Positions 22,386 to 47,084 of a stretch of DNA of 64,000 nt are shown piece after piece (position 1 is the stretch's first letter; every line of letters begins with the position of its first letter). The notes beneath the pieces are model-generated. The model was given only the letters and a program-made list of their open reading frames with translations. It had not been told where the DNA came from and searched no databases. This DNA is from Alphaproteobacteria bacterium (lineage in GTDB: Bacteria; Pseudomonadota; Alphaproteobacteria; Rs-D84), in NCBI GenBank assembly GCA_017427405.1, contig JAFRSV010000012.1, positions 5,103-69,102 on the forward strand. Direction: 5' to 3'. Both the position numbers and the translations under genes were made by a program.

Positions 22386-22740
22386 GTGTAAGTGTTAGTG
22401 GCTAGTGTTAGTCCGTCACGACCGCGGTGCGGTCATGCCGCGACGGGTGTGCGGGGCAACGCCCCGCGTTTTTTGCAAAATTCCAGAGACGCGTCACCCC
22501 GCCGAAGGGCGGGGCCCAGGCCGAGCGTAGCGAGGACTTGCTCCGCAGGAGATTTTTCATTGTGAAACAATGAAAAACATAAATGTCTGCGACGCAGGTG
22601 CTCACATACGTTCGCACTGGATCCCGGCCTTCGCCGGGATGACGGCACTCTGGAATTTTTGCACAAGAAACCAGTGTAATGCACTGATTCCACTATCCGC
22701 TTACACCAACACTAAAAAATCGCCGTTTGGCGATTTTTTT
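22386..22740. repeat. Nested composite of palindromic repeats, bounded by inverted stop-rich heads and ending in a bidirectional terminator
   Basis: Head gtgtaagtgttagtggctagtgttag (22386..) against inverted ccactatccgcttacaccaacactaa (22690..22715). An inner unit at 22475..22662 is bounded by inverted GCAAAATTCCAGAG/CTCTGGAATTTTTGC. Includes a family-B unit at 22619..22644 and the hairpin AATCGCC-gttt-GGCGATT with A/T runs at 22714..22740. Confidence 0.8.
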
Positions 22741-22744
22741 ATCC

Positions 22745-22996
22745 TTGCCCCGATTCGCAAATTTTGATAGTATCTAGGTGAACCAAGATGGGAATCTGGT
22801 TCAGGGACGTAGAACATCCCGTGTTTGTGCGGCACAAAAGTGTCGTAATCTGTTTATGGTGCTTTTGTGCCATTTCCCTGGCTGTTATTGGTCGGGGTGC
22901 CACGTAAGTGGGGGTATTCACAAACATGCCTGTTCTAACGCCCTGACCGTCCTGTTTTTGGTGACGGTTTTTTAAAATAAAACAGGGAGTAAACAG
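22745..22996 (+). promoter_or_regulatory. Structured leader copy 1: promoter, uORF, three-strand switch, terminator
   Basis: TTGCCC, 17 nt, TAGTAT (22745..22773). uORF 22788..22907. Strand 1 CCCTGGC 22876..22882, strand 2 GGTCGGGG 22890..22897, strand 3 CCCTGACC 22941..22948. Terminator GACCGTC/GACGGTT plus T-run at 22945..22973. RBS and ATG at 22997. Confidence 0.6.
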
Positions 22997-24028
22997 ATGA
23001 GGAAAATAAATTTATTCAACCGTAATATAAATTCAGCGTCATACCGCGGCAACGGGTCTCGCAAAAATGTGCCGTCATTCCGCGGAAACGTGGAATCTCC
23101 GCGGTATTGTAGAGAATCGGTCTGCGGTAAAACTGACGGGATCCCGGCTTTCGCCGGGATGACGAGAGGAAAGCGCGCTATGATGGCGAAAATATGCGGG
23201 ATGACGATGATTGCGATTACGGCGTTATTTGCCACGCCGTCATTCGCAACGCCAACGGAATTGGACAAGAAAACCGTTGCATCCAAGGCCTATGTCGACA
23301 CGAAACAGGACAAAATCGAAACCGGGTTGGTGGAGTTTAATGGCAACCCAGAACTTATGTTGCCGGCGATTACGACATATGATTCTACAAGTGGTTTGGT
23401 TGGTAATAGAATCGGTATTTTGGACCAGGAAACTGTTGCAAGTGATGAGGGTACTTTACGCATTTATAGCTATGCATATGACTATGGTTCCGAAATGGAC
23501 AATTTTGTTCCAACCGTTCGTGCCGTGGCGGATGCGCTTCAAGACGTTCAATGGTTTCCCTTTTCCTGGAACAATAACGTATTCCCCGCTGCAATCGACG
23601 CATATAGTGTGACTTTTGACCCGACATCAACACATGTAAACGGAAATTGGCCATATAATCAACAAAACTATTTGGTTCGTGCCGACACATTTGCAAATTC
23701 CCTTGCCCTGAAACAAAATAAACTGCCAGAACTAGATACTAACTTAGTGCTTGGGCAAGCTGGTAAAAGTGTACTTGCGCCAACCACGGCTGGCAATGTG
23801 ACACAGGTTGCACTTTGGGATGCCGATGGGGCAGAACCAGACGCATGGGATGTGGGTACATATTTCTCGGATGCTACCGCAGATGAACGTAACGCGATTA
23901 ATTACTCTATTCCAACCGTCGGTGCAGTAGCGGTCGGTCTTAACCAAAAACAAAACAAAATGGTATGCGCCGGTTGGGACAGTGATACGCACACCGATGA
24001 ACATTGTTGGTTGTGGAGTATAGAGTAG
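22997..24028 (+). CDS. Secreted protein paralog 1 (unknown function)
   Basis: Signal-like IAITALFATPSFA. The next ~100 aa are near-identical to the 28949 gene (TELDKKTVASKAYVDTKQDKIETGLVE...). Shared C-terminal C-x(11-12)-CWLW. Residues ~5-60 are encoded by in-frame family-B repeats. An alternative internal start lies at 23180 (MMAKICG, RBS GAGAGGAAAG). Confidence 0.65.
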   Translation: MRKINLFNRNINSASYRGNGSRKNVPSFRGNVESPRYCRESVCGKTDGIPAFAGMTRGKRAMMAKICGMTMIAITALFATPSFATPTELDKKTVASKAYVDTKQDKIETGLVEFNGNPELMLPAITTYDSTSGLVGNRIGILDQETVASDEGTLRIYSYAYDYGSEMDNFVPTVRAVADALQDVQWFPFSWNNNVFPAAIDAYSVTFDPTSTHVNGNWPYNQQNYLVRADTFANSLALKQNKLPELDTNLVLGQAGKSVLAPTTAGNVTQVALWDADGAEPDAWDVGTYFSDATADERNAINYSIPTVGAVAVGLNQKQNKMVCAGWDSDTHTDEHCWLWSIE

Positions 24029-28709: not shown

Positions 28710-28948
28710 TTGTTTTTTATACCCATGTTTTGATAAAATATTTATATCGGTGGGTGTTCCATCGATGGGGTGTCAAGACCCGTGGTTCCGGATGTCCGTG
28801 GGGACAAAAAACACCTCCAACCCAGGGTGGTTGGAGGGCGGTGAATATAAAGAATAAACCCACTATTTTCTCGGAACATAGTCTTGAACCTCCAACCACT
28901 TGAAGTGAATTCGGTGGTTTTTTGTTACATAAAAAAGGAGGAAAATAT
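28710..28948 (+). promoter_or_regulatory. Structured leader copy 2: promoter, 5' hairpin, uORF, three-strand switch, terminator
   Basis: TTGTTT, 18 nt, TAAAAT (28710..28739). Hairpin TCGGT/ATCGA at 28747..28765. uORF 28765..28857. Strand 1 CCTCCAACC 28814..28822, strand 2 GGTTGGAGG 28829..28837, strand 3 CCTCCAACCAC 28889..28899. Terminator AACCAC...GTGGTT plus T-run to 28923. RBS AAGGAGG. Confidence 0.7.
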
Positions 28949-46840: not shown

Positions 46841-47084
46841 TTGCTTTTCGTTTTCATAATTTACTAAAGTGAAATTGTCGGCGGGTGTTCCGTCGATGGG
46901 GGGTAACGACCCGTTCATACGTTGCCAAAGTGGCGTAAAAAAACTCCAACCCGTGGGTTGGAGGGTCGTGAATAATATCGGGGATTCCCGATAAAATAAG
47001 CGCACAATACGTATGAATTGTCGTTAACCTCCAACCACTTGAAGTAATTCGGTGGTTTTTGTTTTGATACCAAGGGAGGATTCA
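46841..47084 (+). promoter_or_regulatory. Structured leader copy 3: promoter, 5' hairpin, uORF, three-strand switch, terminator
   Basis: TTGCTT, 18 nt, TAAAGT (46841..46870). The conserved block tcggcgggtgttccgtcgatgggg starts at 46878. uORF 46896..46994. Strand 1 CTCCAACC(C) 46944..46952, strand 2 GGTTGGAGG 46956..46964, strand 3 CCTCCAACCAC 47028..47038. Terminator AACCAC...GTGGTT plus T-run to 47060. RBS AGGGAGG. Confidence 0.7.

Follow-up and report, generated by a model that had tools for sequence, protein, structure and literature searches.

The DNA region considered here raises the question whether the RNA read from it can adopt two competing folds, and whether the choice between them decides the transcription of the gene behind it. 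The region spans positions 22745-22996 of a stretch of 64,000 nucleotides (nt), called the window below, which was taken from an Alphaproteobacteria bacterium of the lineage Rs-D84 (GenBank assembly GCA_017427405.1, contig JAFRSV010000012.1, positions 5,103 to 69,102 of the forward strand). The window is chromosomal and carries ruvC, recA, mutL and secD. An original prediction, made from the letters alone, had described the region as a third leader (copy 1) with the same order of parts as two others in the window (copies 2 and 3): its strand 2 was thought to pair alternately with strand 1 or with strand 3, the latter being fused to a terminator. Direct reading of 22500-23300 located every listed element of copy 1 where it had been placed. 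The common order of parts was supported, and the alternate pairing of strand 2 was borne out by folding and covariation. The segment 22778-22975 is quite probably the ~195-nt 5' leader of a secreted-protein gene, acting in cis as a riboswitch-like transcription attenuator.

Relatives of the leader

On sequence and model evidence the region 22745-22996 was confirmed as a genuine member of an uncatalogued family of ~200-nt structured leader RNAs (elements as labelled in Table 1). A 19-mer from copies 2 and 3, used as query, yielded 14 true relatives, which make up type A. Type B was defined after homologs of the downstream protein had been fetched, many paralogs of which carry a leader like that of copy 1. 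A 16-mer of the 5' hairpin P0 together with a second motif retrieved 31 different sequences of type B from genomes and metagenomes, and the covariance model R1 added seven type-B leaders without the exact 16-mer and two type-A variants. Type B comprises at least 40 members in metagenome-assembled genomes of rumen and gut Alphaproteobacteria, which belong to the order Rs-D84 and are related to Candidatus Enterousia. The 16-mer GATGGGAATCTGGTTC alone occurred at at least 118 genome loci (L056-L173), mostly in unrelated phyla (Clostridia, Acidobacteriota, Planctomycetota and others). These matches in unrelated genomes are consistent with chance (~277 are expected for 596 Gb by our own calculation) and not with a wider family, and the true loci were selected with the second-motif filter. 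More than 40 relatives were found upstream of signal-peptide genes of gut and rumen Alphaproteobacteria. Close kin of the leaders and their genes were found only in metagenome-assembled genomes (MAGs) of uncultured gut and rumen Alphaproteobacteria, including Candidatus Enterousia. There are at least three copies in the 64 kb of the window and at least 5-6 in related MAGs.

Copy 1 had been described as a diverged third leader. This was examined with a second covariance model (R2), built from 35 relatives with copy 1, its ortholog L182 and L019 left out. R2 matched copy 1 at 22777-22973 over its full length (model positions 1-228) with 107.8 bits (E 1.6e-31), the second-best match in the window scoring 8 bits. 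Since a model built without copy 1 matches it from end to end, copy 1 is a bona fide, typical type-B member and not a unique degenerate copy. Its minimum-energy fold and its alignment to the model contain the complete type-B architecture: P0 with a GNRA loop, strand a, P1 inner, P1b, P2 with UCGUAAUC, strands 1 and 2, P4, and strand 3 fused to the terminator. The leader of L182 is nearly identical to that of copy 1, and there the gene follows directly.

Five type-A leaders (L012, L005, L016, L009 and L004) were matched by the type-B model over the full length with 16-26 bits (E 2e-5 to 1e-2). Copies 2 and 3 of the window gave no match to it at E up to 10; their minimum-energy folds have the helix order of type B, including P1b. 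Types A and B are treated here as two branches of one architecture; the model does not establish homology of copies 2 and 3 to type B. The sequence GGTTGGAGG and its complement occur five times in the window (0.22 in shuffles), and these occurrences are confined to copies 2 and 3.

The conserved fold

Folding of the copy 1 RNA (22778-22975, 198 nt) gave -88.1 kcal/mol, with z = -6.5 relative to 200 dinucleotide shuffles, and the minimum-energy structure included helix 1:2 and the terminator. The helices of the family structure, referred to as Fold I, were derived from the 31 type-B sequences with RNAalifold and pair counts. In these sequences 96.9% of the cells were paired and 24 of the 42 pairs showed both-sided change. 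The covariation score was 0.49 as compared with 0.19 in shuffles (0/500), and partners slid along the alignment reached at most 0.12.

P0 is in the family a 9-bp hairpin with a GGGA loop, whose 5' arms covary (GAACUG, GAGUCA, AGAA/UUCU). In P1 outer strand a (UCGGGG) was paired by RNAalifold with strand 3 (CCCCGA), and a compensatory A-U in the pairing of strand a is found in copy 1 and L182. Both-sided change was seen in most pairs of P1 inner (6-7 bp, columns 33-39 with 234-240). Covariation was strongest in P1b (8-11 bp), where a column may show as many as six pair types; this helix joins the linker after a conserved GCC to the region before a conserved UGAU. P2 with its conserved loop motif was present in all members; the 10-bp hairpin that had been regarded as an extra of copy 1 is this helix. 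The P4 of copy 1 is short; relatives have a longer form with the internal loops AUAWA and AAAG. A local hairpin P5 was considered for type B and dropped, as it is mostly the 3' strand of P1b; the local hairpin persists only in the alternative fold described below. A conserved structured domain with covariation support, one of the features that define a riboswitch class, was thus found in this family.

Competing pairings of the switch strands

The pairings of strands 1, 2 and 3 were studied in a gapless alignment (A7) of 39 distinct type-A and type-B leaders, in which each strand was anchored independently on its own C-run or G-run. Helix 2:3 was paired in 89.5% of the cells, with both-sided change at 8/11 positions and a score of 0.489 (shuffles 0.170, 0/500; slid partners up to 0.14). 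The corresponding values for helix 1:2 were 86.9%, 6/9 and 0.548 (shuffles 0.218, 0/500; slid partners up to 0.19). In a permutation test the duplex energies of cognate strand pairs were compared with those of non-cognate pairs. Cognate 2:3 duplexes were more stable in all leaders (0/5000), in type B (0/5000) and in type A (5/5000), and the same was true of cognate 1:2 duplexes (0/5000, 8/5000 and 2/5000, respectively). In all 31 type-B leaders 2:3 was the most stable duplex, with -15 to -24 kcal/mol as compared with -9 to -17.5 for 1:2 and -8 to -15 for a:3.

Strands 2 and 3 track each other also at positions that lie outside a:3 and the terminator stem. Type-A leaders fall into groups with CCUCC-A-ACC opposite GGU-U-GGAGG and with CCUCC-UG-ACC opposite GGU-CA-GGAGG, and the type-B extension GGGG-UG opposite CA-CCCC shows the pair types U-A, A-U, G-U and U-G. 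Position i=7 of helix 2:3 tracks the type of terminator (G-C in 16 sequences, U-A in eight). Going from copies 2/3 to copy 1, helix 2:3 has both bases replaced in three pairs (G-C to U-A, A-U to G-C, U-A to C-G) and strand 1 follows, which agrees with the earlier claim that compensatory change between these copies has kept both pairings. That claim was to fall if a larger alignment lacked covariation; among the 39 leaders both 1:2 and 2:3 covaried. The central interpretation, namely that the alternative pairings are under selection, is supported and extended by these comparisons of sequence.

The substitutions of copy 1 relative to the type-B consensus can be followed strand by strand. Strands 1 and 3 both show C to U and A to G substitutions, which are compatible with wobble pairing. 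In strand a an A has replaced a G, which gives a Watson-Crick A-U with the U of either of these strands. It has to be asked whether copy 1 could be a decaying relic, cut off from its gene by repeat insertions and carrying strand differences that reflect drift. The ATG next to the leader is separated from the signal peptide by 183 nt of palindromic repeats, both promoter boxes (-35 and -10) are weaker than the family consensus, and P4 is minimal. However, the nearly identical leader of L182 stands directly before an intact gene, all helices of copy 1 are intact and its fold has the low z score given above, every strand substitution keeps pairing (by wobble, with the additional A-U in a:3 and a:1), and the insertion of 61 codons is in frame, as it is in at least nine other loci. 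Decay is therefore a very improbable explanation.

In type A the switch strands resemble the Shine-Dalgarno (SD) sequence and its complement (GGAGG and CCUCC, e.g. 28814-28837, 28889-28897 and 28938-28943), and the SD of the gene is GGAGG. A free strand 1 or 3 of type A could thus mask the SD of the gene as well; this feature is missing from type B, which has GGGG and CCCC.

Two predicted folds and proposed transcription attenuation

Strand a, the covarying rod of P1 and P1b that closes a four-way junction, and the conservation of the promoter at a fixed distance were absent from the original account. With strand a and the rod included, the predicted switch becomes a swap of partners among four strands between two global folds. 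In the proposed mechanism the promoter at its fixed distance would start the RNA at P0, and the four short strands a (UCAGGG), 1 (CCCUGGC), 2 (GGUCGGGGUG) and 3 (CGCCCUGACC) would build two mutually exclusive structures. In Fold I, a:3 and 1:2 would form, with a:3 capping the rod (P1 inner and P1b) that closes the four-way junction of P2, P3 and P4. This would leave GACCGUC free, so that the terminator could form and transcription would stop before the gene. In Fold II, helix 2:3 (10 bp) would sequester the first four bases of the terminator 5' arm and polymerase would read through. Fold II would need the rod to be unformed, and strand a would then be free for strand 1.

In copy 1, helix 2:3 covers GACC, four of the seven bases of the terminator 5' arm; covering this arm is the standard logic of anti-terminators. 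A mutually exclusive terminator/anti-terminator platform, a further feature by which riboswitch classes are defined, is thus present in the predicted folds. Structures with 2:3 forced were examined for copy 1 and for the canonical type-B leader L180. They consisted of P0, of a:1 enclosing P2, and of 2:3 enclosing P4 and a local hairpin. The latter is formed by the region of the P1b 3' strand; in type A (ACWAU/AUWGU) it was paired in 100% of the cells and one of its pairs covaried.

Fold I with the terminator was the minimum-energy structure in every full-length member (31 type-B sequences). Since Fold I is the more stable, the anti-terminator would need kinetic trapping or a stabilising factor. 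Several observations weigh against a switch of this kind. When three G-C pairs of 2:3 are imposed, the full-length RNA loses 5-18 kcal/mol of stability, and an RNA that ends before the 3' arm of the terminator loses 0-13 kcal/mol. Helix 2:3 crosses P1 inner and P1b, with which it would form a pseudoknot, and it cannot coexist with the strongly supported rod. The a:1 pairing was weakly supported, with 37/5000 in the permutation test for type B and no support in type A. Many of the leaders are recent paralogs that have even the upstream cassette of terminator and promoter in common. The count of cells therefore greatly exceeds that of independent compensatory events, and the shuffle control makes no correction for relatedness. 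Finally, the downstream genes do not point to any ligand. The mutual exclusion of 2:3 and the rod suggests that the choice of fold would be made during transcription or by a factor.

These energies bear also on a simpler explanation, that the leader is a constitutive structured 5' untranslated region or insulator. Fold I would then be the only fold used, serving RNA stability, processing or as a landing pad for a protein or the ribosome; the terminator would be leaky, and 2:3 would be a by-product of the likeness of strand a to strand 2 and of strand 1 to strand 3. It would fit with Fold I having the lowest energy in each of the 31 members, with its helices holding by far the most covariation, and with the incompatibility of 2:3 and the rod. 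It would not account for the strand 3 positions outside a:3 and the terminator stem that still covary with strand 2, namely the type-A UG/CA insertion and the type-B UG:CA extension. Nor would it explain why strand 3 of type A retains 9-10 nt of complementarity to strand 2 where strand a is only GGGG, or why 1:2 never equals 2:3 in length or strength. We regard a purely constitutive role as unlikely, though as the most serious of the competing explanations. Attenuation remains the preferred reading: the two folds would be used as an on/off switch, with an effector setting the choice during transcription. A small molecule or an ion could serve as effector, as could a protein or RNA acting in trans.

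A type-B deletion variant was noticed at two loci (L042:1339-1475 and L154:2562-2698). It is without the 3' half of P2, strands 1 and 2 and P4, and it retains P0, strand a, strand 3 and the terminator; the gene behind it is apparently intact. Such a leader would be without an anti-terminator.

Promoter, terminator and the transcription unit

A promoter pair of the form TTGNNN, 16-18 nt, TANNNT was found at a constant distance from P0 in 29 of the 30 leaders of type B and in 11 of the 12 of type A; in one further type-A leader (L017) the pair is 5-6 nt nearer to P0. The commonest type-B promoter is TTGACC, 17 nt, TATAAT. As the promoter stands at a fixed distance from P0, the transcript is expected to start a few bases 5' of this hairpin. 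A terminator hairpin and T-run overlapping strand 3 were present in every member of the family. The promoter of copy 1 matches 8/12 consensus positions, its boxes being weaker than the family consensus, and a simple consensus scan of copy 1 called neither the promoter nor the terminator, because of this 8/12 match and of a bulge in the terminator stem. Positional conservation across the family supports the two elements as putative promoter and terminator. In most type-B paralogs, as in copy 1, GGCGATTTTTTT lies directly 5' of the -35 box, and for this reason terminator, promoter and leader seem to duplicate as a single cassette, which the upstream hairpin at 22714-22740 may insulate.

A unit with its own promoter and a strong terminator could also be an independent small RNA gene, its terminated transcript of ~195 nt acting in trans on targets such as mRNAs or paralogous leaders. 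The many paralogous copies with common strand sequences would suit such a role, and so would the real signal peptide of copy 1, which starts 200 nt further downstream. However, all leaders with enough downstream sequence are followed by a gene on the same strand with an SD, which mostly starts 20-35 nt after the T-run and further away where repeats intervene. In the ortholog L182 no second promoter was evident between the terminator and the ATG, and the family has conserved the alternative pairing by which the terminator is removed. An RNA gene of this kind is improbable, and the leader is better read as acting on the gene that follows it.

Table 1. Features of the window at copy 1, with copies 2 and 3
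Feature	Position	Strand	Description	Basis
Upstream terminator-like hairpin	22714-22740	+	AAAAAA-TCGCC-gttt-GGCGA-TTTTTTT (AAAAAATCGCCGTTTGGCGATTTTTTT); adjoins -35 box	Sequence reading
Putative promoter	-35 22745-22750; -10 22768-22773	+	TTGCCC, 17-nt spacer, TAGTAT	Sequence reading, family positional conservation
P0	22780-22802	+	5' hairpin GAACCA(A)GAU-GGGA-AUC UGGUUC, GNRA loop	Minimum-energy fold; 5' arm covaries
ATGGG	22788-22792	+	Within P0	Sequence reading
Strand a	22801-22807	+	UCAGGGA, G-rich, resembles strand 2; partner strand 3 (P1 outer) or strand 1	RNAalifold, forced alternative fold
a:3	22803-06 with 22941-44	+		Minimum-energy fold
P1 inner	22808-22816 (5' strand) with 22931-22940	+		Minimum-energy fold, covariation
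P1b	22820-22829 with 22919-22928	+	CGUGUUUGUG with CACAAACAUG	Minimum-energy fold, covariation
P2	22831-22871	+	Long hairpin, GGCACAAAAG (22831-22840) with CTTTTGTGCC (22862-22871); motif UCGUAAUC at 22843-22850	Covariation (helices 4 and 5)
Strand 1	22876-22884	+	CCCUGGCUG; core CCCTGGC 22876-22882	Sequence reading, fold
P3 (1:2)	22876-84 with 22889-97	+		Minimum-energy fold
Strand 2	22889-22899	+	UGGUCGGGGUG; core GGTCGGGG 22890-22897; partner strand 1 (P3) or strand 3 (anti-terminator)	Sequence, fold, covariation
P4	22900-22911	+	CCAC-GUAA-GUGG	Covariation (helix 7), fold
Strand 3	22939-22949	+	CGCCCUGACCG; core CCCTGACC 22941-22948; last bases GACC(G) open terminator 5' arm	Sequence, fold
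Putative intrinsic terminator	22945-22975	+	GACCGUC CUG / UGG (U) GACGGUU; arms GACCGTC 22945-22951 and GACGGTT 22963-22969, T-run to 22975	Minimum-energy fold
SD-like sequence and ATG	22985-22989; 22997-22999	+	GGGAG; orthologs have GGGAG/GGAGG and ATG at the same distance	Sequence reading
Downstream open reading frame	22997-24028	+	61 in-frame palindromic-repeat codons, signal peptide start 23180/23183, then motif PTELDKKTVASKAYVDTKQDK	
Copy 2, type A	28710-28948	+	Promoter, P0, P1, P1b, P2, strands 1/2/3 (CCUCCAACC / GGUUGGAGG / CCUCCAACC), terminator	Sequence, fold
Copy 3, type A	46841-47084	+	Architecture as copy 2	Sequence, fold

The ATGGG sequence and leader peptides

The original prediction had interpreted ATGGG as the start of an upstream open reading frame, and with it the leader as an attenuator of the trp/his type, in which a ribosome translating this frame chooses between 1:2 and 2:3. 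Most members do have an ATG followed by GG, and the required alternative arrangement of 1:2, 2:3 and terminator exists. The ATGGG of copy 1, however, is the end of the P0 5' arm and the GGGA loop, so that in type B the ATG lies inside a stem with a GNRA loop, and the ATGGGG of copies 2 and 3 stands at a different, non-homologous position. Five members have lost the ATG: L021, L036 and L038, all three with AGAAGGGA, L043 with AGACGGGA, and a type-A variant in L016 with GGUGGG. No SD was found in the 14 nt upstream of the ATG, which lies ~10-20 nt downstream of the -10 box and hence must sit close to the 5' end of the transcript. The frames opened by it range from 7 to more than 70 amino acids in both types and stop at unrelated positions, and no regulatory codon runs were found in them. 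As a conserved short frame with start codon and SD was not found, leader-peptide attenuation was rejected; among the explanations considered it is the least credible.

Downstream genes

The genes after all three copies code for proteins with signal peptides. Those after copies 1 and 2 are paralogs (45% identity) with the motif PTELDKKTVASKAYVDTKQDK in common, and the gene after copy 3 is unrelated to them. Searches of Pfam, PHROG and NCBIfam with the three proteins gave no match. Open reading frames were recovered for 42 of 43 leaders, most of them with a hydrophobic, signal-peptide-like segment at the start or after an in-frame stretch derived from repeats; a few of the calls (e.g. L175) look spurious. 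No known domains were found in these frames, and the 189 homologs of the downstream protein are all annotated as hypothetical. An AlphaFold2 model from an alignment of 42 sequences had a pLDDT of 55.6, too poor for a fold search.

Palindromic repeats (e.g. GTCATTCCGCGGAAACGTGGAATC and ATCCCGGCTTTCGCCGGGATGAC) occupy 22997-23180, between the leader-proximal ATG and the signal peptide of copy 1. Such repeats were also seen in L024, L031, L176, L177, L179, L184, L187, L188 and L192, and the frame is open through them. The in-frame stretch amounts to 61 codons in copy 1 and up to ~100 elsewhere, often after a common MKKINLFNRN start. We take these repeats to resemble the in-frame palindromic elements of Rickettsia.

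The search for homologs of the downstream protein also returned genes outside the window that start with MRI... and have no leader. Inverted repeats of 16-46 nt (AAAAACCAAGGTTTTT / AAAAACCTTGGTTTTT) flank 30-80 bp just upstream of them (L052:1236-1358, L054:1298-1420 and L023:1311-1435; also in L018, L033, L039, L049-L051 and L055). From its sequence this arrangement looks like an invertible promoter for phase variation.

Comparison with known systems

The 4227 families of Rfam 15 were searched with copy 1 and copy 2 of the window, with L180 and with 17 loci from other species. Apart from tRNAs, no family reached the gathering threshold in the window or in the 17 loci of relatives, and at E up to 10 only spurious fragments of snoRNA, sRNA, miRNA and short cis-regulatory families were returned. 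None of the papers searched linked Rs-D84 to riboswitches. We class the leader as a new family of an established mechanistic kind, that of terminator/anti-terminator riboswitches or attenuators, outside all catalogued families.

Like terminating riboswitches and orphan candidates, the leader has a large 5' domain that is conserved, covaries strongly and contains a multi-helix junction, a terminator 5' arm common to the alternative helix, and several copies per genome before functionally related genes. Unlike them, it has genes for secreted proteins of no known function as its putative targets instead of enzymes or transporters, and its switch strands are part of the conserved fold itself, where they would swap partners among four strands, and not of a separate, variable expression platform. 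The arrangement of 1:2 and 3:4 (terminator) against 2:3 (anti-terminator), with strand 3 common to the terminator, is that of the trp, his and pheA leader-peptide attenuators. It differs from these in having no translatable peptide, a structured sensor domain of ~100 nt, a long-range rod and a fourth strand upstream.

Two further systems were compared. The four-way junction and the strings GGGAAUCUGG, GGUG...AAUCC and GCCAC-like in type B recall the cobalamin riboswitch (RF00174) by eye; membership of that family was rejected, as neither copy 1 nor L180 matched its Rfam model at E up to 10. With T-box leaders the family shares a long structured leader, a choice between terminator and anti-terminator and many copies per genome, and P2 has a possible T-loop-like motif (UCGUA). 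It differs from them in having no T-box sequence, no specifier loop and no Rfam match, and in standing before genes unrelated to amino-acid metabolism.

Candidatus Enterousia belongs to the order Rs-D84, whose members have never been grown in culture, have genomes below 1 Mb and are without respiration and the standard transporters (PMC12306168). Going beyond attenuation as such, it is possible, though we propose it only tentatively, that the leader represents a new riboswitch class or an effector-dependent anti-termination system working by the four-strand partner swap (a:3 with 1:2 versus a:1 with 2:3). It might then be the main regulator of the secreted and surface-protein repertoire in the genome-reduced, probably partner-dependent Rs-D84, sensing a signal from host or partner.

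For RNA biology, the leaders form a well-populated, strongly covarying and uncatalogued family with two conserved competing folds, and they are a ready substrate for ligand hunting and for the study of co-transcriptional fold choice. Their recurrence before genes of secreted proteins makes the leader a candidate master switch for surface presentation in Rs-D84.

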